20,094 nucleotides of DNA. It comes from Elusimicrobiota bacterium (GTDB lineage Bacteria > Elusimicrobiota > Elusimicrobia > UBA1565). Location of the stretch: positions 1 through 20,094 of the forward strand of contig JBDREN010000003.1 of the NCBI GenBank assembly GCA_043819795.1, read 5' to 3'. Under the pieces are notes generated by a model that was not told the origin of the DNA, ran no database searches, and was given only the letters and a program-made list of their open reading frames with translations. How positions within the stretch are numbered: the first letter of the stretch is position 1; each line of letters opens with the position of its first letter. A program made the translations under genes and the position numbers. Positions 1 to 16,400 of this stretch are shown here, one piece after another.

Positions 1-402
1 CCGGACGATCTGGCCGACGAGGAGCCCGGCGCCGGTGATGAGAAGGGCAAGGGCAAAGGCAAGGTCGCGGCCGCGGCCGGGGCCGACCCGGCCTTCGCGC
101 TGCGCGACCTCTACGTGTTCCCCAACCCCGCGGTGGGCGGGACCGCGCCGACGATCCACTTGGCCGTGGGCATCGCCGACAAGGTGACGATCCGCATCTA
201 CAACGTCGCGGGCCAGCAAGTGCACCAAGCCACGTTAGAGTCCTCGCCCCCGGTCATCAACGACGGAAGCGGACCCAAGTACGCCTACGAGTACGCGTGG
301 GGCGACCGCATCCCGAGCGGGGTCTACCTCTACACGGTCGTAGCCGAGAAGTCCGGCGAGGCCGCCATCCGCAAGGCCGGCAAGTTCGCCGTGGTGCGGT
401 AA
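1..402 (+). CDS. C-terminal fragment (5'-truncated) of a secreted protein ending in a FlgD-Ig / T9SS type-A-like sorting domain
   Basis: Frame 1 is open from base 1 (PDDLADEEPGAGDEKGKGKGKVAAAAGADPAFALRDLYVFPNP...) to TAA at 400-402. Motifs: YVFPNP, IRIYNVAGQQV, W..IPSGVYLY and terminal KFAVVR. Confidence 0.85.
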   Translation, partial: PDDLADEEPGAGDEKGKGKGKVAAAAGADPAFALRDLYVFPNPAVGGTAPTIHLAVGIADKVTIRIYNVAGQQVHQATLESSPPVINDGSGPKYAYEYAWGDRIPSGVYLYTVVAEKSGEAAIRKAGKFAVVR

Positions 403-511
403 TCAACGCCGCAAGCCCGCCTTGCGGCGCTTACACCTTCCAGTCATAAGGAACTCCGTCCCAGCGCCGCTGTTGCCGTTTTAGCACCGCAGGGCAAGCC
501 TGCGGCGCTAA
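403..511. repeat. Pair of related palindromes in inverted orientation (REP-doublet-like)
   Basis: Hairpin 1: CGCCGCAAG-cccgc-CTTGCGGCG (407-429). Hairpin 2: TTAGCACCGCAGG-gcaag-CCTGCGGCGCTAA (481-511, one mismatch). The reverse complement of 403-433 matches 481-511 at 23/31 positions. Confidence 0.6.
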
Positions 512-668
512 TACCGCTGACATTTCGGCATCCCCGGGACAGCCCCCCTCCGCGAATTTCCGACGGGAGCCGAAAGAAAACTTGCCAAATGGTCGGTTTC
601 GGGCTGACAAAAATTTTTTGTGCTTATTTTTAAAGCGTTATTTCTATATCTTTGTCAGCGTGCTGTCA

Positions 669-718
669 TTGACTTTGGGCACATTCCGGGTCACAATGAA
701 AGTACACAGTATCAGGAG
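669..718 (+). promoter_or_regulatory. Sigma70-like promoter and RBS of porV-like copy 1
   Basis: TTGACT (669-674), 17-bp spacer, CACAAT (692-697). AGGAG at 714-718 lies 8 nt before ATG 727. An AT-rich tract lies upstream (610-650). Confidence 0.6.
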
Positions 719-726
719 CGTATGCC

Positions 727-1686
727 ATGAAAAAGCAGACCCTTCTAAAACACAGCGCCTTGATCCTTCTCGCGGCCGCCCTTTTGGCCACCCCAGGCTG
801 CCTGCTGATGGCGGCCATCAACTCCGGGGCGGCGTTCCTTAAAATCGGCACCGGAGCGCGTCCGAGCGCGATGGGCGGAGCCTACACGGCGATCGCCAGC
901 GACGTGGACGCCATGTACTACAATCCTGGCGGGCTCGCGAATCTTACCCGCCGCGAGCTGGGCGCCACGCACGCGGAGTGGCTGCTGGACACGCGCTTCG
1001 ACTTCCTGGGCTACGCGCACCCCACCCAGTTCGGCACCTTCGGCCTGGGCGTCACTCGGCTCGCGGCCGGGAATCAGGACGGCCGGGACGCCAACCGCCA
1101 GGCCACGGGCTCCTTCGAAGCCTCGGACGCGGCCTACACGGCCAGCTTCAGCCGCGCGGTCACCCCGGGCGGGATCCTGGCCTCGGGGCGCACGAGCCTC
1201 GGCGTGAACCTCAAGTACCTGCAGAGCCGCATCGGCGCCTACTCGGCCGAGACCGTGGCCTTCGACCTCGGCGCCCAGCACCAGCTGAGCGGGACCCCGC
1301 TGTCGTTGGGGATGTCGGTGCTGAACATCGGCAAAGGGATGCAGTTTTTGCAGCAGGTGGATCCTCTGCCTCTCACGGTGTCGGCGGGCGCGGCGTACCG
1401 CTTCGGGGGGACGCTGAACATCGTGCTGGACGTGAGGCACGAGGTCTACGACAAGAGGACCGACGTGGGCGTGGGCACGGAGTACGCGCTTCTTCCGAGC
1501 TTCGCGCTGCGGGCGGGCTACGCGTCGCAGTTCTCGGGGACGAGCGGGAGCGGGACGCTCGCGTCGCTGGGCGGCCTGGGCGCGGGCTTCGGGATCAACA
1601 TGAGGAACTACCGGGCGGACTACACGTTCACCCCGTTCGGGGACCTGGGCAACGTCCAGAGGATCTCGCTCGGCGCGAGGTTCTAG
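727..1686 (+). CDS. PorV/PorQ-family (UPF0164-like) outer-membrane beta-barrel protein, copy 1
   Basis: Signal-peptide-like N-terminus, family motif GAAFLKIGTGARPSAMGGAY...YYNPGGLA, amphipathic beta-strands, DY..TPFGDLG near the end, C-terminal Phe (GARF), good RBS. Confidence 0.85.
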   Translation: MKKQTLLKHSALILLAAALLATPGCLLMAAINSGAAFLKIGTGARPSAMGGAYTAIASDVDAMYYNPGGLANLTRRELGATHAEWLLDTRFDFLGYAHPTQFGTFGLGVTRLAAGNQDGRDANRQATGSFEASDAAYTASFSRAVTPGGILASGRTSLGVNLKYLQSRIGAYSAETVAFDLGAQHQLSGTPLSLGMSVLNIGKGMQFLQQVDPLPLTVSAGAAYRFGGTLNIVLDVRHEVYDKRTDVGVGTEYALLPSFALRAGYASQFSGTSGSGTLASLGGLGAGFGINMRNYRADYTFTPFGDLGNVQRISLGARF

Positions 1687-1704
1687 TCGGAGCGGCCGGA
1701 CACA

Positions 1705-1748
1705 CGAGGCGAGGAATCCTCCGAGGATTCCTCGTCTCGCGCTTTTTC
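1705..1748 (+). terminator. Intrinsic terminator-like hairpin between convergent porV-like and rluD-like genes
   Basis: CGAGGCGAGGAATCCT-ccg-AGGATTCCTCGTCTCG: 16-bp stem with one G-U pair, followed by cgcTTTTT. Confidence 0.7.
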
Positions 1749-1755
1749 CAAGAGT

Positions 1756-2691
1756 TCAGCGGACCGCCTTCCAGTATACCAGGAAGTCTTTGGGCACGCT
1801 CGCCGTGAACGAGACTTTCTTCTCCGTCCGGGGGTGGGCGAAGCGGATGCGATACGCGTGGAGCATCATGCGGGGCGGCGGCGGCAGGCCCAGCTCCCGC
1901 AGGCGCTCCCTCTCGCGATCGCCGAACGCCTCGGGGTCCCCCAGGACCGGATGGCCGAGCAGCGCCAGATGCGCGCGGATCTGGTGGGTCCGTCCGGTCA
2001 GAGGCTTGGCATTGACGAGGCTCAGGCCCCGCGCCGTCTTGACAGGGGTGAAAGACGTGCTCGCCTCCTTGCCCCAGGGGGACACCCGGACCCTGCGCCG
2101 GCCGGGAAGCCGGCCGATCGGAGCCTCCACCGTCGTCTTCTTCAAGTCCCCGAGCACGACCGCGCGATAGACCTTGTCGACGCGCCGCTCCCGGAAGGCC
2201 GCCAACAGGCTCCGCTCGGCTTCGGTATTCTTGACCGTCACCAGGACGCCGCTCGTCTGGCGATCGAGCCGATGCACGATCCCGCAGCGCGACACGCCCG
2301 ACTCGATCAAGGCCGGCCTGAACTTGACGAGGAATCCCGCGACGCTCGCGTCGCTGTCGGAGAGGGCCGCCTCCGGACGCTGGAGCCAGCTTTCGCCCAT
2401 CGGATGCGTCAGGATGCCCGACGGCTTGCGCAGCACCAGCAGGTCGCGATCCTCATGGATCACCCATCGCTCGAACGGGACGTCCGCCCACCCGGCCTCG
2501 CCCATGCGCAGGCTGAGCACCTCGCCCCCTCGCAGACGGAAATCCGGGAGACAAGCCGCGCCGTCCACGCTGACCAGGCCGCGCCGGATGAGGTCCTTGA
2601 AATAAGAGCGGCTGTAGCCGGAGAACCGGAGGGTCAGATACCGGTCCAAGCGGACGCCTCCGGCGTCGACGGTGACGCGCGTTTCCTTCAT
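1756..2691 (-). CDS. rluD: RluA-family 23S rRNA pseudouridine synthase with N-terminal S4 domain (RluD-like)
   Basis: Starts MKETRVTVDAGGVRLDRYL (ATG 2691 overlaps the lgt stop, ATGA). Motifs: KPSG, HRLDRQTSG (catalytic Asp), TGRTHQIRAHL, HPVLGD, LHAYRI.F.HP. The upstream part of the 756-aa track ORF is off-frame shadow. Confidence 0.9.
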   Translation of the reverse strand: MKETRVTVDAGGVRLDRYLTLRFSGYSRSYFKDLIRRGLVSVDGAACLPDFRLRGGEVLSLRMGEAGWADVPFERWVIHEDRDLLVLRKPSGILTHPMGESWLQRPEAALSDSDASVAGFLVKFRPALIESGVSRCGIVHRLDRQTSGVLVTVKNTEAERSLLAAFRERRVDKVYRAVVLGDLKKTTVEAPIGRLPGRRRVRVSPWGKEASTSFTPVKTARGLSLVNAKPLTGRTHQIRAHLALLGHPVLGDPEAFGDRERERLRELGLPPPPRMMLHAYRIRFAHPRTEKKVSFTASVPKDFLVYWKAVR

Positions 2692-3464
2692 GGCCGGCGG
2701 GCGCGGCGGACGATGAACGCCGCGGCGGCCAGGAGGCATCCGAGCGCGACCCATTGCGAGACCGACATCGCCAGGAAGAACCCGCCCCGGTCGTCGCCGC
2801 GGAAGAACTCGATCACGAAGCGGACCGCCGCGTAGAGGCCGACGTACGCGGCCAAGACCGTCCCCGGGGGAAGCTGTCCGCGCTCGCCCCGGCGCAGCAG
2901 CCGGTAGAGCGCCGCCGCGATCAGCCCCTCGGCCGCCGATTCGTAGAGCTGAGTGGGGTGCAGCGGCACTCCCGCGAGGCGGGGGTCCACGAGGCACTCG
3001 GGATGGTCGAACCGGATCCCCCACGGCAGCGTGGTCGGCCGGCCGGCGCAGCAGCCGGCGGCCAGGCACCCGAGACGGCCGAGCGCGTGGCCGAACGCCG
3101 TGGCGAGGGCGAAATAGTCGGCCGTTTTCAGGTAGTCGAAGCCGGTCCTCCGCTGATAGAGCCAAGCCGTGAAAAACGCGCCGAGCAGCCCTCCGAAGTA
3201 GACGAAGCCGTACCGGAAATCCCTCAGCAGGCGCAGGTCCCCGGCGAGCAGGTCCCGCCATTCGACGGCCCAGTAAAGAAGCTTGCCCCCGGCGATCGCC
3301 CCGAAGAACGCCGCGTAGACCACCCCCCAGAAGTGCTTCTCGCTGAGGCCCATCCTCTCGCGCTGGGTGTTCAGCCACCAAAGGCCCACCAGGTAGCCGG
3401 CGGCCACCAGGAGGCCGTAGGTCGCGATCCGGAAGTCGCCGAAGCGTATCAGGGTGGGAAACAT
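2688..3464 (-). CDS. lgt: Prolipoprotein diacylglyceryl transferase
   Basis: Multi-TM protein with TYG, GFVYFGG, GRLGC...GCC.G.P, HPTQLYE and RFVIEFFRGD motifs. Confidence 0.93.
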   Translation of the reverse strand: MFPTLIRFGDFRIATYGLLVAAGYLVGLWWLNTQRERMGLSEKHFWGVVYAAFFGAIAGGKLLYWAVEWRDLLAGDLRLLRDFRYGFVYFGGLLGAFFTAWLYQRRTGFDYLKTADYFALATAFGHALGRLGCLAAGCCAGRPTTLPWGIRFDHPECLVDPRLAGVPLHPTQLYESAAEGLIAAALYRLLRRGERGQLPPGTVLAAYVGLYAAVRFVIEFFRGDDRGGFFLAMSVSQWVALGCLLAAAAFIVRRARRP

Positions 3465-4100
3465 CTAGGGACCGACGAGTCTCCGGAACTCGTCCGCGCT
3501 GGCCCGGAGGCTGGCGCGGATGTAGGGATTGCGCTCGCGCTCGGCGCCGAGAAGGGCGCTCTTCTCGGCGGAATAGTCGTGGCCCGGCAAGACCCGTACC
3601 GCGTCCTCGAGCGCCGCCAGCCGGCGGAGGCTGTGGTACATCTTCTCGGGATCGGAGCCCGCCAGGTCGACGCGCCCGCAGCCCCCGATGAACAGCGTGT
3701 CGCCGGTGAGCAGGTGCCCGCGCACGAGCAGGCACTGCGAGCCCTCGGTATGGCCCGGGGTATGGATGCAGGCGATCTCCATTTCCCCGAGCCGGACCTT
3801 CTCCCCGTCGGCCGACTTCCTGAGGCCCTCCCCGACATGGCGAAGCGCGAAGGCGTCTGCCTCGTGCACGTGGACGGGAACGGCGTGCTCGCGGAGCACG
3901 GCCTCGACGCCGTTGATGTGGTCTGAATGGCCGTGGGTGAGGAGGACCTTCGTGATCCGGTACCCGTCGGCCCGTGCCGCCTCGAGCAGGGCCGGCACGT
4001 TCCAGGCGGGGTCGACGACCGCGCACTCCTTGGTCTCCGGATCGCCGATGAGATAGACGAAATTGGCCATCGGCCCCAGCTCGAGCTGTCTTACATACAT
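3465..4100 (-). CDS. MBL-fold metallo-hydrolase (glyoxalase II / ETHE1-like)
   Basis: THGHSDH (HxHxDH), HTPGHT, TGDTLF.GGCGR and PGHDY motifs. Likely start ATG 4100 (MYVRQLELGPMANF); an alternative GTG is at 4154. Confidence 0.88.
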   Translation of the reverse strand: MYVRQLELGPMANFVYLIGDPETKECAVVDPAWNVPALLEAARADGYRITKVLLTHGHSDHINGVEAVLREHAVPVHVHEADAFALRHVGEGLRKSADGEKVRLGEMEIACIHTPGHTEGSQCLLVRGHLLTGDTLFIGGCGRVDLAGSDPEKMYHSLRRLAALEDAVRVLPGHDYSAEKSALLGAERERNPYIRASLRASADEFRRLVGP

Positions 4101-4155
4101 ATCCCCGCCCTCGTCGAGAAGGCCGCCGCCTTGGTCGGGCCGGTCCGCTATCACG

Positions 4156-4464
4156 TCACTTGGGCGGCGGGAAGCGGTACTCGACCTCGCCGGGCCTCTG
4201 GAAACCCAGCTCCTTGCGCGCCGCCCGCTCGAGCGCGAGGTCGTCGGTGCGCACGGCCTCGATGCGATCCTTGATGTCCCGCTCCTCCCGCTCGAGGGCC
4301 GCGAGATCCGCCTTCAAGACGCGAAGGCGCAGCGAGTTCGAAACGAGGCTCCGGAAGCCCCTGTTGCCCAGCAGGACGGCCGCGACCGCCGCCGCGGCCG
4401 CGATGTAGAGCCAGCGCCGGCCGAACCGCTTGAGGAAGGCGGCGCGCCCGAACGCCTTAGGCAC
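4156..4464 (-). CDS. ftsB: Septum formation initiator, FtsB/DivIC family
   Basis: Single TM segment, then GNRGF, a coiled coil and [21 protein letters not shown]. Directly downstream of eno, a common arrangement. Start uncertain; GTG 4464 overlapping the eno stop was chosen. Confidence 0.8.
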
Positions 4465-5755
4465 CCGCCCCCACGCCCGCAGGTCGGAACGCGGCGTCGC
4501 CGGCGTAGCGCGCCCGGCCGCCCAGTTCTTCATGGATGCGCAGGAGCTGGTTGTACTTGGCGAGCCGCTCGGAACGGCACGGCGCGCCCGTCTTGATGGC
4601 CCCGGCGTCGAGGGCCACCGAGAGATCGGCTATGTAGGAGTCCTCGGTCTCTCCGGAGCGGTGCGAAATGACCGTCGTGAACCCGGCCTTGTGGGCCTTC
4701 ATTACGGCGCGCACCGTCTCGGTGACCGTCCCGATCTGGTTGAGCTTGATGAGGATCGCGTTGGCCGACCGCTCCCGGATGCCGCGATCGAGGCGCTCCA
4801 GGTTCGTCACGAAGAGGTCGTCGCCGATGACGCGGATGCGCCCCCCCAACGCGGCTGTGAGGGCGGAATACCCCTTCCAATCGTCCTCGGCGAGGGGGTC
4901 CTCGATCGAGACGATGGGGTGCTTCTGCACCCAGGCCGCGTAGCGCCCGGTGATGTCCTCGGACGAGAGCTCGGACCCCTCGAAACGGTACTTGCCGTCT
5001 TGGAAGAACTCGCTGGCGGCCACGTCGAGAGCCAGACGTATCTGCTTCTCGTAGCCGGCCTTTCGGACCGCCTCGAGCACCGTATCGAGGGCCTCGTCGT
5101 GGGAACCCAGCCGCGGCGCGAAGCCCCCCTCGTCGCCAACGGCGGTCGAGTACCCGCCGGCCTTGAGCAGCTTCTTGAGAGCCTGGTAGACTTCGACCCC
5201 CATGCGCATGGCCTCGGGGAAGGAGGAGGCCCCGACCGGGACGATCATGAACTCCTGGACGTCGAGGCCGCTGTCGGCGTGAACGCCTCCGTTGACGATG
5301 TTGAGCATCGGGGCAGGAAGCAGGTACTCCCCGTCCTTCATGCCGAAAGCCGCGCGGAGGTGCCGGTAGAGCGGCTCCCGCCGGCCGGCGGCCGCGGCCC
5401 GCGAGACGGCCATCGAGACGCCGAGCAGCGCGTTCGCGCCCAGCCCGCTCTTGTTGGGCGTCCCGTCCCGGGCGATGAGCTTCTCGTCCGCGGCCTGCTG
5501 GTCCGCCGCGTCCGATCCCCGGAGGGCCGGCCCGAGGACGTTGACGACGTTTCCGATCGCCTTCGTCACGCCCTTGCCGCAGTATCGCGCCGCGTCCCCG
5601 TCGCGCAGCTCGAGGGCCTCATGCTGCCCCGTCGAGGCCCCGCTCGGCACGGCGGCGCGGCCCACCGATCCGTCGTCCAGGATGACCTCGACCTCCAGCG
5701 TCGGAAACCCGCGGGAATCGAGGATCTCGCGCGCCCGCACCTCTTTGATCTTCAT
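4457..5755 (-). CDS. eno: Enolase (phosphopyruvate hydratase)
   Basis: [73 protein letters not shown]. Confidence 0.97.
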
Positions 5756-5823
5756 CGAAACGCCCCCCGTGACTCCCTCCTCGCTTCTCGAGGAGGACAC
5801 TTTCCCTCTTCGGGTACGAAAAT

Positions 5824-6020
5824 CCCCCTCGGCGGCGAGGGGGCTGCCCCTTCATTATGAAAGGAAGGCGCGTCCCCTCTCAGGGACGCCCCCCCTCAAC
5901 GGAGAGGGGGCCACCCTATATTAAAGTAACCGTGCCCCCCCAAAACCCCCTCAGCGGCGAGGGGGCCACCCTATATTAGAGTAACCGTGACCCCCCAAAA
6001 CCCCCTCAGCGGCGAGGGGG
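5824..6020. repeat. Four CCCCCTC-N6-GAGGGGG hairpins, three of them within a 55-bp tandem repeat
   Basis: Hairpins start at 5824, 5891, 5946 and 6001. Units 5891-5945 and 5946-6000 match at 51/55 positions. The last hairpin overlaps the pgm stop codon. Confidence 0.9.
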
Positions 6021-7493
6021 CTTCCCTTGTATGATCCGCTTGCCGGCTTCGACCATCCCCTTGAGCCCCTTAGGGTCGAAGGCCTCGGCATAAAGCCGGA
6101 CAACCGGCTCGGTCCCCGAGAACCGCAGCCCGAGCCAACGGCCGTCCTTCAGGATGAACTTGAAACCGTCGGTATCGTCGATGCGCCAGACCGAAGCGCC
6201 GGCCAGCTCCATCGGCGGCTTGAGCCGCAGCCGGTCGTTGAGGTCTTTCATCAGCCGGGGCCCCTCCAGCGCGAAGTTGATGCGGACGTTGTGGTAGGCC
6301 CCGTGCTGCTTGAAGAGCTCCTGCCGGATCTTCGCGAGGGGCTTGCCGGCGAAGGCCACGAGCTCCGCCATCAGCAGGCACGCCAGCACGCCGTCCTTCT
6401 CCGGAGCGTGCCCCCGGATCGAGAGCCCCCCGGACTCCTCGCCCCCGATCAAGAAGTTCCCGGTCCGCAGCAGCTCCCCGACGAACTTGAAGCCCACGGG
6501 CGTCTCGCGGACGCGCAGGCCGTGCGCCTTGGCGATGGCGTCTACGAAGTGCGAGGTCATCAGGCTCCGCGCGACGTTCCCCTTCCAGCCCTTGTTGACG
6601 ATCAGGTGGTGCAGCGCCAGCGCGAGCACGTCGTTGGCCGAGATCCACACGCCGCCGGCGTCCAGCACCCCGAAGCGGTCCCCGTCGCCGTCGCAGGCGA
6701 GCCCGAGATGGAGGCGCTGCTTCTTCATCAGGGCCGCCAGCTCCGAAAGCCGCTCCGGGGTGGGCTCCGGAGAATGCCCGCCGAAGAGCACGTCCCGCCC
6801 CTCGCGCAGGGCCGCGACGTGCACGCCCAGACCCTCGAGGAACGGACGGAGATAGCTCCTGGCCGCTCCGTGCATAGCGTCGACGCCGATCCTCAGCTTC
6901 GAGGCCTTGAGCTTCTCCGTGTCCAGGAGCCTGCGCAGCTGCTTGAAGTAGGAGGCGCGGAAATCCGTCTCCACGATCCATCCCTCCCGGAGGGCCTTGT
7001 TGTAGTTCATCACGCGCACCGCATGGTGCCCGCCGCTCGCCAAGCGGCGCTCGATGTCATCGGTGACCCCCGGCGTGGCCGGCCCGCCCCAGTAGGGAGC
7101 CCACTTGACGCCGTTGTAATGACCCGGGTTGTGGCTGGCCGTCACGACCACGCCGCCCACGGCCTTGGCCTCCAGGACCGCCCAGGCCACCACCGGCGTC
7201 GGCGTATCGCTCTTGGCGAGCAGCACCCGTACGCCGTCGGCCGCGAACACGGCGGCGGCCTCGCGGGCGAACTCCTCCGACAGGAACCGGGTGTCGTAGC
7301 CCACGACCACGGTCGGACCCGGGCCGTCGGCGGCCTTGCCGGCCTGCTCGCGGTAATCCTGGCTGGAGAAACCGAACTCCGGGTGCTCCTTGACGTGGCC
7401 CGCAATGGCGTGGATCAGCTTGCAGACGTTGGCGAACGTGAACTCCTCGGATATGACCGCGCGCCAGCCGGAGGTCCCGAATTTGATTGCCAT
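6006..7493 (-). CDS. Phosphoglucomutase/phosphomannomutase family protein (alpha-D-phosphohexomutase)
   Basis: IKFGTSGWR, TASHNP (phospho-Ser), CDGDGDR (metal loop), GGEESGG, R.SGTEP..RLYAE. Confidence 0.95.
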   Translation of the reverse strand: MAIKFGTSGWRAVISEEFTFANVCKLIHAIAGHVKEHPEFGFSSQDYREQAGKAADGPGPTVVVGYDTRFLSEEFAREAAAVFAADGVRVLLAKSDTPTPVVAWAVLEAKAVGGVVVTASHNPGHYNGVKWAPYWGGPATPGVTDDIERRLASGGHHAVRVMNYNKALREGWIVETDFRASYFKQLRRLLDTEKLKASKLRIGVDAMHGAARSYLRPFLEGLGVHVAALREGRDVLFGGHSPEPTPERLSELAALMKKQRLHLGLACDGDGDRFGVLDAGGVWISANDVLALALHHLIVNKGWKGNVARSLMTSHFVDAIAKAHGLRVRETPVGFKFVGELLRTGNFLIGGEESGGLSIRGHAPEKDGVLACLLMAELVAFAGKPLAKIRQELFKQHGAYHNVRINFALEGPRLMKDLNDRLRLKPPMELAGASVWRIDDTDGFKFILKDGRWLGLRFSGTEPVVRLYAEAFDPKGLKGMVEAGKRIIQGKPPRR

Positions 7494-7498
7494 GAGCG

Positions 7499-7531
7499 AC
7501 TATATATAGCATAAGAGTCCATCATTTTCAA
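7499..7531 (-). promoter_or_regulatory. Sigma70-like promoter of the pgm gene/operon, probably giving a near-leaderless mRNA
   Basis: Minus strand: TTGAAA (7531-7526), 17-bp spacer ending TGC, then TATATATAGT-cgctc-ATG. No Shine-Dalgarno sequence. Confidence 0.5.
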
Positions 7532-7594
7532 TGCTTTTCTTGGCGACGCCGAATAGCGGCCCGCGCGTCCGGCCGCAAAAACGCCTGTTTTCTA

Positions 7595-7674
7595 TGGTAT
7601 AATAACCTGGGTCCTTCGGCCTATTGCCGTATAGGCCGTTGGGTCTTGCGCTCACAAGAGCCCGCCCCTATACT
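7595..7674 (+). promoter_or_regulatory. Two candidate promoters and an inverted repeat upstream of the orphan secreted protein
   Basis: Extended -10 TGgTATAAT (7595-7603); TTGCGC-17bp-TATACT (7646-7674); CGGCCTAT-N6-ATAGGCCG (7617-7638). Confidence 0.55.
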
Positions 7675-7691
7675 ATGGGGACGAAAGGCCT

Positions 7692-8873
7692 ATGACGACA
7701 AAGCGCGCGTTCACCCTCTTCACGATCACGGGACCGCTGATGGCGGCCCTGTTGCTTTGCTCTCCTACGCGTGCGCACGCGCAGATCGACAACGATTGGT
7801 CGCCCCAGCCGCAGGCCAATCCATACATGCGCATCACCACTCCCGACGGCGGGGACGTGGTTCTTCCAGACGAAGTCGACAACAGCGCTGTGTTCGAGCA
7901 GTATCCCCTCGAAGAGTGGACCCAGCGGAAGGACGCCAACGGCAAGGTCCTGGGGCTCTGCCACCCCGTGGGTCTTTGCACGTGGCCCCCAAAGGACCTC
8001 GAGAACGACGGGGAGACCGCGGCGGACGCTTTGGACAGAGCCGGGACCAACACGGCCCAGAAGGTCCAGGAGCAGAACAACGGCAAGGAATGCGTCCCTG
8101 GGGAAACCTGCTTCATCGGCCCCTTGCCCGCGGACTTCGGCGAGCTCAACGACCGCGATCTTGAAGAGGAGGCGGAAACGCCCTGCGATGCCGGCACGGA
8201 CTACTGCGATTCGGACGGCGAAAAGCTGACGCCGGAACAATTCGCCCAAGACAAGGACAGCGCCACCGAAGCCCTCCAGAACCGGTATAACCAGCGCGGA
8301 CGCAGTGAGGTCATCTCCAAAGAGGAGGCCGGGACCTTCGGCCACGACGGGCAGGACCCCGATAAGCTGGCCTTCAACGGGCCCGCCCCGGAGGGCGGCC
8401 CGACCGGCGGAGAAATCCGCGGCGCCGAGGTCAATTGCGCCGAGACCGGCACATGCGAGGATTTCGCGGAAAGCTACCAGGGCATGATGAAGGGGATGGC
8501 CGCAGGGCCCGAGGGCCCTGCCGGAGCCCAAGTCGGGACCTATCCCGGCGCCCGGAACGTCGCCCAGACGGCCGTCGAGGTCGAGAAGGCCCTCGGCGAG
8601 GAGAACAAAGCCGGCGGCATCTCCCCCACGCTGACCCGGCTCAAGGGCCTGCGCGACGACTTGATCCACGCGATCGTGGGCCTGGGCGTCTCCGCCGAGG
8701 ATAAAGCCCTCGACGACCAGGCCGCCTCGCTGGCCGGCAAGGCGTACCAGAACAACCGCGCCGACCGGCGCGAGATCCAGGTCAGGCGCTGCAAAGACCA
8801 GCTGCAAGGCGCCGGCGACGACGCCGCCTACCTCTGCCCGGAGCTGGACCCCGCCCCCGTCACCACGCCTTAG
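7692..8873 (+). CDS. Hypothetical secreted, acidic, cysteine-paired protein
   Basis: Sec signal peptide ending AHA|Q, D/E-rich mature part, five Cys pairs, promoter motifs upstream. No family recognised. Confidence 0.75.
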   Translation: MTTKRAFTLFTITGPLMAALLLCSPTRAHAQIDNDWSPQPQANPYMRITTPDGGDVVLPDEVDNSAVFEQYPLEEWTQRKDANGKVLGLCHPVGLCTWPPKDLENDGETAADALDRAGTNTAQKVQEQNNGKECVPGETCFIGPLPADFGELNDRDLEEEAETPCDAGTDYCDSDGEKLTPEQFAQDKDSATEALQNRYNQRGRSEVISKEEAGTFGHDGQDPDKLAFNGPAPEGGPTGGEIRGAEVNCAETGTCEDFAESYQGMMKGMAAGPEGPAGAQVGTYPGARNVAQTAVEVEKALGEENKAGGISPTLTRLKGLRDDLIHAIVGLGVSAEDKALDDQAASLAGKAYQNNRADRREIQVRRCKDQLQGAGDDAAYLCPELDPAPVTTP

Positions 8874-8880
8874 CCCGACC

Positions 8881-9846
8881 TCAGAACCTCACCAGAACGC
8901 AATAGCGGAAGGTGTTTCCCAGCTCCCCGAAGGGGATCCAGGCGAAATCGAAATCCAGGCGGCCGTAGCCGACGCCGGCCCCGAACGTGACGCCGTCGAA
9001 CCCGTCGGCGTCGGTGTTCGACGCGTTGTAGCCGCCGCGCACGGACCCTGAGAGGACCTCCCCGAACCGCTTGCGGTACTCGGTCCCCAAGCCGAGGCGC
9101 ACCGCGTCGTCGCGGGGCACCCGGATCTCGACGGCCGCCAGCCACCGGGGACCCGGCCGGAAGCCCGCCCCGGCGTAGAACATGAACGGCAGGGGATCGG
9201 CCTCCGAACGGAACCGTACCTTGCCGCCCAGGTTCCGAACGCCCCCCCCGGCCGAAAGCCGGCCCCTCCGGCGCAAAACGCCCGCATCCAGGGCGAACGC
9301 CCTGGCGCCCACCGAATCGATCTCCTGATCGATGAGCTTGCCGGCGACGCCCGCCGACCACTCTTCGGAGAAAGCGCGGCCGTAGGCGAGCGTGTAGGCG
9401 AGGTCGCTGGCCCCGAAGGTCCCCTCCGGCTGGTCGGTCTCGATGAGGCCCCGGCGCTCGATATCGCCGACCGAGAGGCTCGTCAGGGAGAAAGCGAAGA
9501 CCCCGAGAGCGTTGCGCTGCCGGCGGGTGTCGACCCAGGAGAGCACGGGGACCGCGATCGCCCCGAAGTTGTGGCGGATGCCCTGGAAGTGGGAGTTGTG
9601 CATGGCCGCGGCCTCGAGCCGCTTGAGGTGGCCCAGGCCGGCGGGGTTGTAGTAGACGGCGTGAACGTCGTCGGCCACTCCTCCGAACGCCTCGCCCATG
9701 GACGCCGGCCGCGCGCCCGGCGCGAGCTTCAAGAACTGCGCTCCCGAGGTCCCCTTATGGCCCCGGCCGAAGGACCACGCGGGCGCCGCGCCGCCGCCTA
9801 CAAGGGCCGCCGCCATCATAAGGGCTGTTGTCCGCCGTGTCGTCAT
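8881..9846 (-). CDS. PorV/PorQ-family (UPF0164-like) outer-membrane beta-barrel protein, copy 2
   Basis: Start ATG 9846 (MTTRRTTALMMAAALVGG..AWS). Motifs GTSGAQFLKLAPGARPASMGEAF...YYNPAGL and DFAWIPFGELG; C-terminal Phe (LVRF). Confidence 0.85.
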   Translation of the reverse strand: MTTRRTTALMMAAALVGGGAAPAWSFGRGHKGTSGAQFLKLAPGARPASMGEAFGGVADDVHAVYYNPAGLGHLKRLEAAAMHNSHFQGIRHNFGAIAVPVLSWVDTRRQRNALGVFAFSLTSLSVGDIERRGLIETDQPEGTFGASDLAYTLAYGRAFSEEWSAGVAGKLIDQEIDSVGARAFALDAGVLRRRGRLSAGGGVRNLGGKVRFRSEADPLPFMFYAGAGFRPGPRWLAAVEIRVPRDDAVRLGLGTEYRKRFGEVLSGSVRGGYNASNTDADGFDGVTFGAGVGYGRLDFDFAWIPFGELGNTFRYCVLVRF

Positions 9847-9865
9847 TCTATTTTCTCTGCGATGA

Positions 9866-9904
9866 GGGCTCTTGCGGAATTCGGTACGAATTCCGCAAAA
9901 GCCC
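9866..9904. other. Strong intergenic stem-loop between the giant gene and porV-like copy 2
   Basis: TTGCGGAATTCG-gta-CGAATTCCGCAA is a perfect 12-bp stem, extended by GGGCT/AGCCC after one mismatch. No U-tract follows it on the coding (minus) strand. Confidence 0.7.
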
Positions 9905-9910
9905 GACACT

Positions 9911-12900
9911 TCACTTAATTACCGCCATCTTGAAGAATGTCGACTGTCCGCCTATCTTTATCTGGGCTATGTACACGCCGCTGGCCACGTCGCGCCCGGA
10001 GTCGTTCCGCCCGTCCCAGGGCTGATAGTGGTACCGCCCCCCGGTGAGCGCGCCCAGGTCCATCGTCCGGACCCTCTCGCCGGCCACGTTGAAGATGCGC
10101 AGGAACCCAGCCCCCCCGAGGCCCCCGGGCACCGCGAAGCGGATCATGGTCCCGCGCACCGTGTGGTTCGGGCCTCCGGCGCTGCCGTGGATGGCCTGCA
10201 CCGTCTTCGGCGCCAGGTCAAAGGGGTTCGGGAAGTTGAAGGCCTCGATCGTTCCCCCGCCGAAGCCGCCCCCCGAGATGACCGCCACCCCGGTGTCGAA
10301 CAGGACGAACGTCGAGAAATGGTCGATGTTGAACGTGATCGTCCGGTTGCCGGCGTCGATGACCGGAGACGCGCCCGTGACGTCCTGCTGGAGGATGTAG
10401 GAGTTGGCCGCCGCGTTGTACCAGTAGAGGTTCAGGTCCGCCGGGTCGATCCCCGTCGGATAGCTCACCGTCAGCTGCGCCGGCTTGGCCAGCGCCCTCC
10501 TAACCCCGTCGGGCAGCAGGACATCGTAGAAGGGGCTAAAGGGGTTCACCTCGGGCGGGGTCGCGGCCAACGCCCGAAAGACGTCCGAGGGATAGGCCTG
10601 CGGCGCGTAGCGCAGCGACCGGATGTTCGCCTGGCTCCCGAACAGCCCCCCGGCCCGCAGCGCCTGCGCCCCTTCCAGAAGCTCGTCGGAGCGCTGCAGC
10701 GCCACCCGGACAGATGAGGACGCGTCCACGAAGAACGCTCCCTGCGGGAGCGTCACGCGCCCGCCGTCTCCCTCGATGACGAGCGAGCCTCCGGTGAGGT
10801 TCGGGATGCTGGTCTTGTGATAGCCGTCCACACCCGAATAAAACGTGAACGCCGAGTCTATCACGAACTCGGGATCGTCCGCGTCGATGGAGTCGGGGTC
10901 CCTGAGCGCGCTGAACGCCCGCGCCCGGAGAGTGAAGCTCGACTCGCCCACGGCCGGAGCGTAGACGGCGCTCAAGGCCAGGCGGCTCTCGGAGAGCTCG
11001 CGGGCGCTCAAGCTCCCCTGGGCCGCGGCCGTCGCGAGGATCAAGTCCAGGTCGTCGTCATCGGCCGTGCGCGAGCGCAGGGGGTGGCTGAACCGGAACT
11101 CGAGGAGGAAGTCGCCCCCCTCCCGCCGGGACTTGGCCAGCACGAACGGCGGCGCGCGCCGGAAGACGAGGTCGATCGCGCGGGCGTCGACGCTGCTCTC
11201 GAAGACGACGTAACGGCCCTCCTCGGGCGTCATGAGCTCGCCGTTGCCCGTCACCAGGACGACCCGGTAGCCCACGCCCGGCCGGAACCCGCTCAAGCTG
11301 TAGCCCGACACCGTCCGCGTGACCGGGTCGGATGCGAGGCTGCCGCCGAAGACCTCGACCATGCCGGGCGTGGCCGCCAGGATCCGGACGATCTCATCCT
11401 CCCCGGGGGACGTCCCGTCGGAAGCGCGTATGCCCCCCGTGAGCCTCGCTCCCGAGCCGAGCGTGAGCGTCCCCATGTCCACGGAGGCCGTGGAGATCGT
11501 GACGGCCCTCGCGGCCGGCGCGTAGCCGGCGGCGGCGGCCGTGAGCCGGTAGGTCCCTGTCGCGAGGTCCGGGACCGTGAACCGGCCGTCCGGCCGCGTC
11601 CGGACCAGGATGTCGGCCACCGGGTTGCGGACCGGGATGATGTCCTCCCTCTGGACGTACAGCAGCGCTCCAGCCCTCGCCTCGGACCCCCCATCCGAGA
11701 AGAGCGTCCCGGCGTCCGGGGCCGCCACGCGCCCCGAGACCGAGAAGGCGGCCGGGGCGAGCGAGACGTCGAGCGTCGTCGTGCTCCGGATGTCCACCGA
11801 CGGGAGGAGCCTCTCCTTGTAGGCGGCCGGCCGGCGCCCGCCCGGGTCCTCCTCGCGGGCGGCCACGAAGATGTCGTAGAAGCGCGCCTCGACATCCAGG
11901 CCCCGGAGCTGATAACCGCCGCCGGAATCAGTCGCCGTCTCGGGGGGACGCCGCCGCGGGCTGTCCTCGCCGGGCGCCTTCGCGGCCCGCCGGGCCAGTA
12001 TCGTGATATTGGCGAGCCCCTCGCCGGTGGCCGCGTCGGTCACGCGGCCGCTCAGGGTCGCCGACGCCCGCACCCGGACCGTCCCGATATCGGCCGTCCG
12101 GCCCTCGACCACCGTCACGCCCGAGCGGACGCCGGAGAGGAGGTCGAGGCTCCCGCCGCGAGTGTTCTCCGTGCTGTTGAATACGTTGAACTCGACGTCG
12201 TAGAGGCCCGGAAGCACCGCCGGGATCGTGAACTGGCCCTGGGCGTCGATCAGGACGCCGCCGTCCGCCGCGGCTTCCGCGAGGCCGCGCGCCGGGAAAA
12301 AACCGCCCTGGAACCACGGGTTCGCGACGGCGAACATCCGGAAATCTGGGGGCAGCAGGCTCCTGTTGTCGGCGGCGACCAGTACGAACTCGCGGCTCCC
12401 GTCCGGCGCGGTCCGCTCGACGGCGATCCTGCCCTTGATGTTCCCCCCGGAGTACAGGAGGATGTCATGGTCCTCGATGTCCGCTCCGGCCACCTCGACG
12501 AGCCTCGGCTTGGCGGAAAAAGCCTTCGGGTAGCCCAGATCCGCGGCCACGACCGAATAGGCGCCGTCGGCCACCTTGTCGAAAACATAGCCGGCGGAGC
12601 TCTGGTTGTTGAAGTTGAGCACCGCCTCCCGCAAGCTCCTGCCCCTCCCGTCGGCCAGCGAAACGGAGAACGGGCGGCTCGCCAGCCGTCCCTCCGGAAG
12701 GCGGACGCTGCCGCCGACCCTGACGCCGCCGGTGATCTCGAGGTCCGCCCGCGTGTCGCCGGAGACGCGCAGCGCCATGGAGGCCGACGCCGCCTCGGCC
12801 CCGTTCTCGGCCCGGCCGTCGAGGTCCTCCGGGACGCGCAGCAGGTAGGCGCCGGGCGGGACCCCCTCTATCCGGAAATCCCCGTCGGGCTCCAGCTCTC

Positions 12901-13435
12901 CCAGGTACGCGACGAGGCTCGGCGGGAGCCCCTCCGCGTGCTCCACCTCATAGTCCAGGCAGCTCCCCGTCGAAGTCCGAAGCTCCCCCGCGCGGTCCCC
13001 CTCGTGCCGGCCGACGGGGATCAGCTCCACGTGCGCGGCCGAGAGCGTCACCGGCTCGCTGGATGAGAGCAGGCAATAGCTAGCGGAAGGCGACTGCGCC
13101 AGCAGCCCCGGGACCGAGCTGACGCTCACGCTGAAGACCCCCTGGCTCAAGTGCACGTCGCCCGACACCGAGACCTTGCCGGATACCGTGAAGGTGGAGC
13201 CCGAGAGGTCGATGACGGCCGAGGCCGTGGCGCCGTCGGCCAGAGCCAGAAACACGTCGGCGGCGTTGCCCGAGGGGCCGTGCATGAGCTGGAAGTTGTA
13301 GAAGCCGGTCCCGAGCGGAGGAGACAGGAAGCTCATGCTGGAGGCGTGATACTGGAACGTCGTCTGCGCCGCCAGCGTCGTGACGTCGGCCACGGCCCTC
13401 GGCGCGGTATCCGGCCCTTGCAGGAAGAATCCCAC
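9911..13435 (-). CDS. C-terminal part of the giant surface protein: carboxypeptidase-regulatory-like beta-sandwich repeats, ZU5-like HFS domain, FlgD-Ig/T9SS-A-like CTD
   Basis: Repeated (L/V)SG.V...G.F/Y....L..G.Y modules; GRVTLPQGAF...LYWYN...IDHFSTFVLF; FNFPNPF...IFNVAGERVRT...WDGRNDSGRDVASGVY...KMAVIK. No signal peptide or RBS at 13435, and the frame reads sensibly back to the C8 run, so this is probably the continuation of the upstream ORF. Confidence 0.85.
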   Translation of the reverse strand: MGFFLQGPDTAPRAVADVTTLAAQTTFQYHASSMSFLSPPLGTGFYNFQLMHGPSGNAADVFLALADGATASAVIDLSGSTFTVSGKVSVSGDVHLSQGVFSVSVSSVPGLLAQSPSASYCLLSSSEPVTLSAAHVELIPVGRHEGDRAGELRTSTGSCLDYEVEHAEGLPPSLVAYLGELEPDGDFRIEGVPPGAYLLRVPEDLDGRAENGAEAASASMALRVSGDTRADLEITGGVRVGGSVRLPEGRLASRPFSVSLADGRGRSLREAVLNFNNQSSAGYVFDKVADGAYSVVAADLGYPKAFSAKPRLVEVAGADIEDHDILLYSGGNIKGRIAVERTAPDGSREFVLVAADNRSLLPPDFRMFAVANPWFQGGFFPARGLAEAAADGGVLIDAQGQFTIPAVLPGLYDVEFNVFNSTENTRGGSLDLLSGVRSGVTVVEGRTADIGTVRVRASATLSGRVTDAATGEGLANITILARRAAKAPGEDSPRRRPPETATDSGGGYQLRGLDVEARFYDIFVAAREEDPGGRRPAAYKERLLPSVDIRSTTTLDVSLAPAAFSVSGRVAAPDAGTLFSDGGSEARAGALLYVQREDIIPVRNPVADILVRTRPDGRFTVPDLATGTYRLTAAAAGYAPAARAVTISTASVDMGTLTLGSGARLTGGIRASDGTSPGEDEIVRILAATPGMVEVFGGSLASDPVTRTVSGYSLSGFRPGVGYRVVLVTGNGELMTPEEGRYVVFESSVDARAIDLVFRRAPPFVLAKSRREGGDFLLEFRFSHPLRSRTADDDDLDLILATAAAQGSLSARELSESRLALSAVYAPAVGESSFTLRARAFSALRDPDSIDADDPEFVIDSAFTFYSGVDGYHKTSIPNLTGGSLVIEGDGGRVTLPQGAFFVDASSSVRVALQRSDELLEGAQALRAGGLFGSQANIRSLRYAPQAYPSDVFRALAATPPEVNPFSPFYDVLLPDGVRRALAKPAQLTVSYPTGIDPADLNLYWYNAAANSYILQQDVTGASPVIDAGNRTITFNIDHFSTFVLFDTGVAVISGGGFGGGTIEAFNFPNPFDLAPKTVQAIHGSAGGPNHTVRGTMIRFAVPGGLGGAGFLRIFNVAGERVRTMDLGALTGGRYHYQPWDGRNDSGRDVASGVYIAQIKIGGQSTFFKMAVIK

Positions 13436-16400
13436 CTCGTCGAAATCGTCGGCGCAGCGGCACGGGGGGGGCCGGCGGCGGGATCCAGACCGCGAACTCC
13501 GCGCGCGCGGAGTCCGGGGAGAACTCCAGCCCCACGACGCCCGGCGCGCTCGTCGAGACCTCCACGGTCGCGGGCCCCGGCGGGGTCTTGCGATACCCCC
13601 TCAGCAAGGCGTCCACCCGATAGCTGCCGGGCTCGAGGCCCGTGATCGTGAAGGTCGCGGCCGTCACGGTCGCGGCCGTCGAGAGACGCACGTACTCGCC
13701 GCAGCTCCGCCGCGTGGCCGGGTCCAAGGCCTCGACGAAGACGGCGAAGGCGCCGGGGTCCGCGAAGGCGGGCCCCGAGCCCGCGGCCGCGCCGGCCAGG
13801 AGCGCGGTGTCGCCCGTGACGCTCACCGTGCCCCGGATCACGAGGCCCTGGCCCAGCGGCAGGTCGAGGTTGCCGGCGCCCGTCTGCGGGTCGCCGATGT
13901 CGCCGTCGTCGGGAACGTAGAGGACGGTCGTCGTCGAGACGAAACCCCGGCTCTCGGCCCGGATCGTCCAGCTCCCGACGTCGAGCCCGAAGACCGTATA
14001 CGGGGCGCTGGTCGGGACGACCCCCCCGGAGGCCGGCTCCACGAAGGCGCCCTTGAAGCGCGCGGGCGCCCGCTCGCCCGGACGCGTAGCCATCACCGAT
14101 ACCCAGGCCCCGAACGGCTTGGTCGAGGGGAGGACCACAGAGCCGTAGACGTTCGCCTTGCGGCGCAGCGGCACGACCACGTCCGTGAACGTGGAGACGG
14201 CCACCCCGGTGACGCGCGTGCTGATCCCGATCGCGGCCAGGTCGATCTCCAGCTCGTAGGTATCGGGCGGGAGGCCCAGGACCGTCCAGGTGCTCGCCGT
14301 GCGTCCCAGCGTCTGGGCCCCGTCGTCCGAGCTGGCGGCGCTCCGCGCGAAGTGAAGCGTTCCCTCCGTCTTCCGGGAGTAGCCGGCGTTGCGCGCCCGG
14401 ACCCGCCCCCAGAACTCCTCCGGCGCCAGAATGGGAATGCCGACCGAGACCCTGATGAAGGCGGGGGCCGGGAAGCCCAGCGTCCCCACGTCCGTACCGC
14501 TCGTGCTGGCCCAGACGCCGAACGCCCCGGTGCTCAGGCTCAAGACCTGTCTCTGCGCGAAGGTCTCGGTCGCGGCGATCACGTTATACGCGCGGCCCTC
14601 GGCGAGCCCGAAGATCCGGAACGCGCCGCTCGAGTCGGCGAGAGCGAAGTTCCCCAGGCCCGCGCCCGGACCTTCGGCCCGGACGACCGCTCCGGCGCCC
14701 GATATCCCCAGGTCGCCGAACACCCACGGAGTCGTCGACACGCGCACTTCGAGCGAGTTGTTCTCCACTGCCCCCCCCGCCGCCGCGATGCGGACCTTGT
14801 AGACGCCGGGCGCAACGAAGCGGCAGACCGATCCCGCGCACGCGATGCCGTCGAAGGTCACCTGGATGGGGCGGTCCGGGTCGCCGGGACCGGATGCCCG
14901 GAAGACCGTCTGGGCGGCGCCCGGGCCGGTCGCGACGGACATCTCCCAGTCGACGGAGCTGTCGGAAAGGCCGAAGCGGATGAACGCATTCAAGTCCCTG
15001 ACCCCGGGCACGAGCACGACGCTCGTGGCGCCCGGGGCGAGCGTCCCCGTGTCGATCGAGACGCCGCTCAAGGCGGCCGGCGCGGCCCGCCGGCCGACCA
15101 GCCGGCTCGCCTCTGCCGAGGTCCCGGAGACGGTCGCCGTGGCCCGTACGAACTCGGAGCCGGCCACGGCGCTCGAGGTCCTGTAGCGGAACTCGGGCGA
15201 GACCGACAGGCCCGCCGCGACCGTGACCGAGCCGGTGCTGATCCCGCCGGAAAGAAGGAACTCGACGCCGGAGTCCCGAAAGAACCCGGTCGCGCTGACG
15301 GTCCCCACGGACAGGGCCGCCTCCACGTTCCCGGCGGCGGCCTGCTGGTTGCCGCAGGCGTCGGTCACCACCAGCTGCATGGTCGGCGAGAGCTGCAAAG
15401 GCCCCAAGGACAGGCGCCGGTACTCGCTGAACCTCAAGGACCGGGCGGCGCCCGCCGTGAGCGATATCTTCGGGACCGTGGATATGCTCACCAGCGACCC
15501 TTCCGCGTCGCCCTGCGTCCGGAGGTCGAAGGTCTGCTCTCCCAGGCCGGCCGGGCCGGCCGGCGGCAGGCCCTTGTAGATGAAGCGTATCTCCTCGTCC
15601 GGCTTGAGCGAGTTCGGAGCCCCGTCTTTCAGGCGCAGCGCCACCCAGTTGTCGCCCAGGGTCACGCTCCCGATCGAGGGCGGGTTGAAGAGGACCTCCG
15701 AGGACCCCGCGACCGTCCACGCCGTGGACGTGGATTCGATCGTGACGTAGCCGGTGGGCGGCACCGGCCCCGCGTGCAGACCCTGCGGACGCGTCCAGCC
15801 CTCCGGCACGCGAAGGCCCACGGCCCCTCCCGGCCCGATCCCGGAAGGACCCACAGTGAAGGCGCTCGTGACGACCAGCGCCTGGCAGCCCGCGGTGGAG
15901 GGAGTAGACGCCCAGGCCGAGCCCTCCCCGTCGCCCACCCCGAAGATGAGGGCGCCCGCGTCGAAGGTGAACGTCGATACCAGGGTGGACGTGAATGCGG
16001 CCGGGTCCGCGATGGAGGACGGGTTCGTCGCCTTGACGACGACGTAGTAGTCGTTGCCGTTGGTCAGGCGGGCGTCCGCGATCGCGATCGTCCACTCGAC
16101 GTCGGGCTCGCGGAAGGGCGTCACGGTGGCCTGCTCCTCGTCGGGGCCGACCAACGAGAACGTCTCGGCGCTCCAGTCGAAATACCGGCCCGCCCGCACG
16201 TCCTTGAGCGCCACGGCCACTCCGGCCACCGAGACCGAGTCCTGCGCCCGCCCGGCCAGCCTCCCGCTCAGAGTCCCGACGGTCGCGTTCAGGGGGATCG
16301 AGAACGTGAGCGTGGGCTTCGACTCCGATATCCTGAAGACCGGGAAGATCGTGCTCGCGTCGGGCAGGATGACGACGTTCGAGACGTCGCTCGCGGTGAT

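Follow-up and report, generated by a model that had tools for sequence, protein, structure and literature searches.

PorV-family barrels paired with type-A-like CTD cargo suggest a pared-down type 9-like pathway for export and surface display in Elusimicrobiota

A type 9 secretion system (T9SS) has been reported from the Bacteroidetes (10.1101/031039) or from the FCB group (PMC11205867), and we found no report of one in Elusimicrobiota in the literature searched. In the Flavobacterium johnsoniae literature, type A tails (CTDs) all use a single PorV; in the type B system, where a PorP/SprF barrel gene lies directly behind the cargo gene, there is pair specificity, orphans use one barrel and similar tags crosstalk (PMC12618676, PMC9143113). 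CTDs bind the loops of PorV, in a pocket that is plastic and hydrophobic, and release from SprA in Flavobacterium takes energy (PMC10994853); it is the complex of carrier and cargo that is freed, for which the GldKLMN energy chain is required there. In the Porphyromonas gingivalis attachment complex, PorZ-PorQ and PorU-PorV each comprise a protein that retains a type-A-like CTD and is held on a PorV-family barrel (PMC5562754). Finally, Treponema pallidum has UPF0164 proteins described as "PorV/FadL-like" (PMC13749626).

We analysed a stretch of 20,094 nucleotides (hereafter, the window) from an Elusimicrobiota bacterium, a taxon outside the FCB group and, as the first-pass annotation of this DNA had supposed, outside Bacteroidota. 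That annotation had described two modules in which a gene with a CTD is followed by a co-oriented PorV-family barrel gene; both are present, as are the CTD motifs that it had read in the two cargo ORFs (Table 1). Two points about the cargo genes had been missed. Firstly, cargo 1 is a contig-end fragment, the 3' end only, of a member of a 16-copy CTD family. Secondly, cargo 2 continues past a frameshift to the contig end, forming one gene of ~3,500 aa (9911-13462 plus 13482-20094), and its orthologues are uninterrupted ORFs of ~3,540-3,725 aa. The frameshift may be an assembly error or a real lesion; the sequencing-run contigs searched have no cover of 13213-13613. Barrel and cargo genes are separated by 324 nt in module 1 and by 64 nt, counted to the ATG at 9846, in module 2. 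The long gap before barrel 1 and the promoter-type match in it (one, versus a shuffle mean of 0.2) are a weak hint that barrel 1 might be transcribed separately. An Rfam search of the window gave no match.

Table 1. Features of the window (positions in nucleotides)
Feature	Coordinates	Strand	Remarks
Cargo 1 gene, 3' end	1..402	+	Truncated by the contig start; a type-A-like CTD spans about 91-399; TIGR04183 score 28.9 (cut-off 23)
Sigma70-like promoter match (9/12)	669..697	+	Inside the 324-nt gap before barrel 1
PorV/PorQ-family barrel 1, 319 aa	727..1686	+	Signal peptide judged by eye; last residue F
RluD, Lgt, metallo-hydrolase, DivIC, enolase, phosphomutase, 393-aa unknown	1756-8873		No link to the modules seen
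PorV/PorQ-family barrel 2, 321 aa	8881..9846	-	Model pLDDT 92, best structural match PorV; predicted partner, CTD of the upstream gene
Giant cargo 2, 3' part	9911..13462	-	Carboxypeptidase-regulatory-like Ig repeats; type-A-like CTD at 9914-10249 (listed ORF 9911-13435)
Frameshift in C-rich run	13462..13482	-	Splits cargo 2
Giant cargo 2, 5' part, >2,200 aa	13482..20094	-	Runs off contig end

The two barrels, said to be homologous yet diverged, are 36% identical, and their assignment to PorV rather than to FadL-type proteins is upheld. Both pass the PorV/PorQ family model NF033709 (157.3 and 147.3 bits for barrels 1 and 2; cut-off 90), and the barrel profile matches PorV at 5.7e-32 versus 2e-3 for TodX. 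In a Foldseek search, the model of barrel 2, a FadL-fold barrel with a hatch, has PorV as its top match (8gl6_F and 6h3i_F, TM 0.77-0.79) and FadL at no more than 0.67. For the FadL/TodX family PF03349, barrel 1 scores 22.3, below the cut-off of 29.7, and barrel 2 is unmatched. We therefore reject a FadL transporter identity, PorV being ahead in both the profile and the structure comparison. Both barrels fall below the equivalog cut-offs (PorV, 55-63 against 250; PorQ, 73-99 against 220; PorV2, 60-65 against 325), neither matches the PorP/SprF-type model PF11751, and both match PF03687 (UPF0164), as do the Treponema proteins.

The two CTDs have also diverged, as claimed, with 30% identity. CTD 1 passes TIGR04183; CTD 2, at 20.3, lies just below its cut-off and exceeds that of FlgD_ig. 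Of 23 CTD members, 20 match TIGR04183 at E<=0.01, at the extreme C-terminus. The best profile matches are PorZ (1e-9) and PorU (6e-9), followed by FlgD (4e-7), and the fold search places PorZ first (2e-4) by a narrow margin over FlgD (9e-4), with PorU at a TMq of 0.63. Judged by sequence, both tails are type-A-like T9SS CTDs, nearest to the uncleaved tails of PorZ and PorU. Domains in the 20 cargo ORFs scanned are PKD, Ig, Fn3, cadherin, LamG, NHL, kelch, FG-GAP, S8 and thermolysin-propeptide.

The adjacency seen twice in the window is enriched throughout the genome, which has 28 PorV/PorQ-type barrels and 41 CTD genes. A co-oriented CTD gene lies directly upstream of 22 of the 25 assessable barrels, versus 15 of 3355 other genes in a set from a simple in-house gene caller (Fisher p 6e-44), and 10 of the 22 pairs overlap by 4 nt; 17 of the 41 CTD genes have no adjoining barrel. 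A 29th jackhmmer match (C134:9154-10419) belongs to the TraF_2 family and was left out of the barrel count. The same genome holds three pairs of type-B-like tags and PorP/SprF-family barrels, with TIGR04131-type tags beside PF11751 barrels at C158 and C172 (51 and 40; cut-off 22.3). In relatives, the module 2 arrangement is kept in 19/19 orthologous loci; for homologues of barrel 1, a CTD lies upstream at 26 of the 29 loci and is of the same class at 24. In a phylum sample, a CTD lies upstream of 39 of 60 barrels and none upstream of the other 21; in two complete genomes, a barrel comes directly after only 4/8 (G041) and 3/9 (G030) CTD matches, and family f11 has a conserved group of stand-alone barrels. 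Nor is the pairing of a type-A CTD with an adjoining PorV-family gene peculiar to this lineage: it occurs in FCB lineages too, the matches listed including Ignavibacteria, Marinimicrobia, Eisenbacteria, Rhodothermales, Gemmatimonadota and Bacteroidota. This breadth comes from one motif scan, in which 80 of at least 120 stretches were examined.

The window resembles the F. johnsoniae type B pairs in gene order and differs from them in that its tags are type-A-like and its barrels PorV-family. Tags and barrels co-diverge: within this genome, their divergences correlate with a Mantel rho of 0.60 (p 5e-5, the permutation floor; the CTD tree being a quick version), and the nearest neighbour is the same for CTD and barrel in 16 of 22 pairs. 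Rho is 0.58 after dereplication to 16 pairs and 0.38 across 56 phylum pairs below 45% identity. For 25 of 39 phylum pairs, the partner of the nearest barrel in this genome ranks among the top 3 of the 22 CTDs (~5 expected). Co-divergence of this kind is, however, obtainable from co-duplication alone. A predicted complex of CTD 2 and barrel 2, the cognate pair being the only one modelled, scored 0.90, with 0.00 for the best control; the mark used is reached by 116 of 157 solved pairs and 2 of 215 mismatched ones. At least 99% of contacts agree between runs, with a partner pLDDT of at least 84, and the predicted contacts fall on hatch and loop residues of the barrel, which agrees with the binding of CTDs to PorV loops (PMC10994853). 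Contact between CTD 2 and the adjoining barrel's loops is a prediction, and the pass may reflect memorisation by the predictor, since the complex resembles solved CTD-PorV structures.

Would each barrel accept every type-A tag, in the manner of PorV in Bacteroidota? The system would then still be T9SS-like, a barrel copy in each cargo operon would serve dosage and co-regulation, and co-divergence would follow from co-duplication. Module 1 speaks for this: CTD 1 is one member of a family with 16 copies (median aa identity 81% over the last 100 aa) for which barrel 1 is the sole barrel of the matching class in the genome, a ratio of 16:1 versus ~1:1 in relatives. The orphan CTDs, the stand-alone barrels of f11 and the plastic PorV pocket (PMC10994853) point the same way. 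At the predicted interface, covariation (23 of the top 50, versus a shuffled mean of 14 and maximum of 22) is equalled by a phylogeny-only proxy and so is not separable from shared ancestry, and no signal at the level of contacts (mean percentile 0.60) emerged from inter-protein mutual information over 124 pairs (127 minus 3 PorP-type; Meff ~52). Against it, pair classes are kept phylum-wide, as the top-3 ranks show, and same-class pairs are carried by cargo bodies that have no BLAST match to one another (C138/C83, and C151b/C218/C56 near the CTD). Among paralogues, conservation is also lower in the predicted interface columns (0.19) than in the other columns (0.28), though loops vary anyway. 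On balance, we regard general promiscuity as unlikely. The pairing had been proposed as specific to each paralogue; adjacency and co-divergence agree with this, and strict dedication fails for module 1 in this genome. Specificity by class, with near-identical tags sharing one barrel, is the most likely arrangement, cognate recognition itself being something we infer.

How complete is the system around these pairs? The genome encodes an SprA-like protein of 1,838 aa, whose profile matches SprA (5.7e-20) along four stretches that are colinear, and such a protein was found in 114 of 121 phylum genomes. It is ~560 aa shorter than SprA (2,403 aa), passes the TIGR04189 cut-off in 0/121 genomes and has no PF14349 match in this genome, where the SprA_N search had no positive control. 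Four small genomes have neither SprA nor PorV matches; in G021, which lacks CTDs as well, a barrel survives as a remnant containing 3 stops. PorV matches persist in three genomes that have no SprA match. The likeness to the Bacteroidota T9SS extends to an SprA homologue, PorV- and PorP-family barrels and both CTD types; PorU, GldL, GldM, GldN and an orthologue of GldK were sought as well and went undetected. GldL exceeds its cut-off in 0/121 genomes; GldM was found in 0/41 and again went undetected in a search with a positive control (G157 detected); GldN has no match in this genome, and GldK gives only sub-cut-off matches of a kind also seen in Bacillus, with no orthologue found. The PorU sortase (C25) has no match in this genome, with controls detected, and found in 2/121 across the phylum.

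A complete but very divergent T9SS, its ring and motor missed by profiles or replaced throughout by FliF-FliG/MotAB and its barrels acting as recycled shuttles, would fit the energy requirement of release from SprA in Flavobacterium (PMC10994853). The Gld models also fail to match genomes G160 and G159, and the GldM and GldN models miss an Ignavibacteria genome with full SprA, so that the motor-less appearance may partly reflect model insensitivity. A flagellum-free FliF-FliG/MotAB operon does lie behind some modules, and a PorV-TPR barrel is directly upstream in 20/20 chosen FliF-FliG-TPR loci. However, besides the near-total non-detection of GldL, GldM and C25, a phmmer --max search queried with an actual GldKLMN locus yields only generic sulfatase-modifying-type matches, no ring or motor gene neighbours the SprA-like gene in 16 loci, and families f4 and f11 include 71 genomes in which FliG_C is absent although the SprA-like gene is retained in most of them. 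We hold this reading to be quite improbable and take the FliF-FliG/MotAB operon as a candidate energiser of one module class only.

That the modules do not serve secretion, the barrels being FadL-like uptake barrels whose partners end in a FlgD-type Ig domain and act, for instance, as binding proteins of the periplasm or surface, can be given very little credence. The barrels do share the FadL fold, the CTDs match FlgD models and a FadL-like nature is discussed for the UPF0164 relatives in Treponema (PMC13749626), but PorV ranks above FadL in sequence and structure, an SprA homologue co-occurs, this genome also pairs type-B-like tags with barrels of the PorP/SprF family, and the cargo, the largest of 12,270 aa, carries adhesin domains.

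Since CTD-tagged cargo adjoins PorV-like barrels, an SprA relative is present, and motor and sortase are undetected, we consider a simplified type 9-like pathway of export and display likely, in which cargo would pass an SprA-like pore and be held, with its CTD uncleaved, by matched barrels. By analogy with PorZ-PorQ, PorU-PorV and the type B/PorP pairs, the tagged protein would leave by Sec, cross the outer membrane via the SprA-like pore, bind by its tag, as the model predicts, to loops on the barrel of the neighbouring gene, according to class, and stay anchored there permanently on the cell surface. As PorU is undetected, the cargo would probably remain uncleaved. The barrels had been cast as shuttles or anchors; an anchor fits better, a shuttle less so, there being no sortase detected to receive the cargo. 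PorZ-PorQ and PorU-PorV are two housekeeping components, in contrast to the ~20 pairs with adhesin- or protease-like cargo here. A bolder version, which we offer tentatively and think doubtful as a whole, would see a stripped-down and possibly ancestral T9SS, with an SprA-type pore and a combinatorial tag-barrel code (type A/PorV-like, type B/PorP-like) but neither sortase nor Gld motor; every barrel would serve its cargo class both as address and as permanent anchor, and the largest adhesins would be powered by flagellum-free FliF-FliG/MotAB coupled to the periplasmic TPR extension of the barrel.

These findings extend T9SS parts to a phylum outside the FCB group and would break the rule of one general PorV for all type A tags. 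With ~20 natural tag-barrel pairs, a single genome offers material for a recognition code, and it becomes testable whether a pore of the SprA type is able to function when the GldKLMN energy chain is lacking. For the organism itself, CTD ORFs take up ~4.6% of the genome, and the route therefore probably makes much of the cell surface.

The four ORFs and the motifs that the first-pass annotation had claimed for the window are present (see table), and its reading of the two modules as type-A-like CTD cargo with an adjacent PorV paralog agrees with profile and structure comparisons. Both barrels pass NF033709 (PorV/PorQ; scores 157 and 147, cut-off 90), and neither passes the PorV, PorQ or PorV2 equivalog cut-offs. 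A profile of 22 paralogous barrels reached 5.7e-32 for PorV of F. johnsoniae and 2e-3 for TodX, and the predicted structure of barrel 2 (pLDDT 92) matched PorV chains first (TM 0.77-0.79) and FadL next. A profile of 23 CTDs likewise placed PorZ (1e-9) and PorU (6e-9) ahead of FlgD (4e-7). At E<=0.01, TIGR04183 was matched by 20/23 CTDs and the type B model TIGR04131 by 4/23; in a fold search, PorZ ranked first and FlgD a close second. Cargo 1 is truncated by the contig start. Cargo 2 is one frameshifted gene of ~3,500 aa, since relatives carry the orthologue in one ORF (3,540-3,725 aa). Contigs from the sequencing runs gave no match over the frameshift. Adhesin- and protease-type domains were found in the cargo ORFs scanned (20/41). 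The window also encodes an acidic protein of 393 aa whose N-terminus is signal-like; it has paired cysteines and no Pfam or NCBIfam match.

Coordinates of the features discussed (C, contigs of the genome containing the window, G000; L, individual loci)
Feature	Location	Strand
Module 1, cargo end with CTD 1	window, 1-402	+
Module 1, barrel 1	window, 727-1686	+
Module 2, barrel 2	window, 8881-9846	-
Module 2, cargo 2 with CTD 2	window, from 9911	-
Frameshift in cargo 2	window, 13462-13482	
393-aa acidic protein	window, 7692-8873	+
SprA homologue	C134:13009-18525	
TraF_2-family barrel	L006:9154-10419 (C134)	
lptF/lptG and SprA-like gene	L006:10525-18525	
Barrels fused to caspase-like domain, HEAT repeats, or coiled coil with weak LysM match	L012:1-1950, L010:589-2238, L301:40-1440	
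Flagellum-free operons	L306:2189-8201; L308 (C218:38988-45979); L307:12507-19439 (C56)	
Class-I CTD genes next to giant genes	C2:1264-23709, C52:1-13895, C15:2-30040, C160:15118-24804	
Stand-alone barrel group	L249, L256, L257, L259, L260, L262, L270, L271	

Iterative searches of the whole genome (4.99 Mb assembly, 90.3% complete, with the window as contig C3) retrieved 41 CTD ORFs and 29 barrel matches, one of which was excluded as TraF_2-family. Three of the remaining 28 barrels lie at contig starts, one of them followed by a CTD gene; among the 25 with an upstream neighbour, 22 have a co-oriented CTD gene directly upstream, compared to 15/3355 other genes, so that the adjacency is enriched genome-wide. 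Counted from the CTD side (n = 41), 22 genes precede a barrel, one follows a barrel, one stands in tandem ahead of a pair, and no barrel adjoins the other 17. Type-B-like tags occur in three pairs, two of whose barrels pass PorP_SprF. At L013, L014 and L024 such tags sit on small proteins (~140-210 aa) beside ~4,000-aa genes, and the PorP/SprF-family partner barrels bear ~335-aa TPR extensions. C-terminal extensions (TPR, HEAT, caspase-like or LysM-like) are common on barrels.

CTDs and barrels co-diverge: their similarities correlate (rho 0.60; 0.58 once six close duplicates are removed), and the nearest neighbour is common to both in 16/22 pairs. Module 2 is kept whole at 19/19 orthologous loci. 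Homologues of the module-1 barrel have a CTD upstream at 26/29 loci, of the same class in 24; two of the other three are at contig edges and one lacks an upstream CTD. Of 60 high-scoring barrels chosen across the phylum, 39 lie downstream of a CTD; in 25 of these pairs the class pairing seen in the window's genome held within the top 3 of 22. ESMFold2 scored the module-2 CTD with barrel 2 at 0.90 (best control 0.00), with contact agreement of at least 99% and partner pLDDT of at least 84. The mark it passed is reached by 116/157 solved and 2/215 mismatched pairs, and the pass may reflect memory because similar complexes are already solved. A phylogeny-only proxy accounted equally well for covariation at the predicted interface. 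Cognate tag-barrel specificity is therefore an inference.

Module 1 complicates this picture. Its CTD is one of 16 copies in the genome (class I; median identity 81%), with a single barrel of the corresponding class found. The proposal of paralog-specific shuttles thus stands as to adjacency (22/25 barrels) but not, for module 1 in this genome, as one-to-one pairing. In four other genomes (G090, G131, G133 and G126), every closest CTD copy has its own adjacent barrel (5, 3, 2 and 1 pairs, respectively). Cargo seems to have multiplied on a single barrel in the lineage of the window's genome, which fits the longer module-1 gap with its promoter-like site; a second barrel of this class may also be missing from the assembly. 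One class-I copy, on C197, looks degenerate. Giant genes (3,000-10,000 aa) without a detected CTD often adjoin class-I CTD genes in this genome. A stand-alone barrel group (60-94% identity), conserved in small genomes, is a candidate general carrier for orphan CTDs.

We then turn to the other T9SS parts. The genome encodes a SprA homologue of 1,838 aa with final residue F, below the SprA cut-off (profile E 5.7e-20, four colinear stretches), whose close named homologues are from Elusimicrobia. Searches of the genome for GldL, GldM, GldN and C25 gave no match, with a positive Bacteroidota control, and GldK gave generic matches only. These negatives carry a caveat, in that an Ignavibacteria genome with full SprA (L053/G160) is likewise missed by the GldM and GldN models; T9SS lacking the Gld parts may be frequent among deep FCB groups. 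In Bacteroidota, porU adjoins porV. Across 121 phylum genomes, SprA matches occur in 114, none reaching the cut-off, and PorV-family matches in 117; the four without a PorV-family match also have no SprA match, and three more keep barrels with no SprA match. GldL passes in 0/121 and C25 in 2/121. One genome, G021, lacks CTDs, and its barrel remnant contains three stops. Neighbours of the SprA-like gene at 16 loci include lptF/G (13), a ComF-like gene (14), barrels resembling PorV or TraF (8) and a CTD protein of the M6-peptidase type (6); lptF/lptG and the SprA-like gene are divergently transcribed at 13/16. The excluded TraF_2-family barrel has a PorV-like hatch motif, recurs near lptFG and the SprA-like gene, and is a possible further component.

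Release requires energy, according to PMC10994853. FliF_C-FliG fusions and motA-motB come immediately after the PorV-TPR barrels of the two largest cargos (12,270 and 6,602 aa), in the order giant CTD cargo, PorV-TPR barrel, FliF_C-FliG fusion, coiled-coil protein, FlbD, MotA, MotB. The fusions in these flagellum-free operons carry TPR or histidine kinase, and the operons are conserved across the phylum. At 20/20 loci hand-picked from the ~650-aa FliG class, a PorV-TPR barrel lies upstream, with a CTD gene also within the retrieved stretch in 16. FliG_C occurs in 45/121 genomes and FlhA in 4/121, the window's genome not among the latter. The operon is a candidate energiser; it is not a general motor, because families f4 and f11 within Elusimicrobiota lack FliG_C. 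Neither window module is linked to such an operon.

Among the motif-scan matches listed for all GTDB genomes, a CTD gene lies upstream by no more than 600 nt at 24 of 80 loci, of which six are labelled Elusimicrobiota, 13 come from named FCB-side lineages and five from others. The gene arrangement itself is thus widespread. SprA is above cut-off in five tested genomes from outside the Elusimicrobiota-labelled loci. In the accessible parts of the literature, T9SS is described as confined to Bacteroidetes (10.1101/031039) or to FCB (PMC11205867); PorV serves all type A CTDs, type B CTDs go by cognate shuttles and orphans have one in common (PMC12618676, PMC9143113); and PorQ anchors PorZ, whose CTD is retained (PMC5562754). 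The Elusimicrobiota tag-barrel pairs may be likened to both the PorZ-PorQ and the type B/PorP anchoring pairs. A giant-gene preprint names Elusimicrobiota with no T9SS or PorV term in its accessible text, and PMC7031533, PMC12204202 and PMC8542988 do not link Elusimicrobiota with T9SS in theirs. We found no published report of the system in the main texts searched, which mostly exclude subscription journals. Set against a canonical T9SS, the Elusimicrobiota system falls outside on motor, ring and sortase. The paired CTD-barrel feature is real and is a variant of T9SS; what is unusual is the expansion of this arrangement in a host without the Gld and sortase parts.
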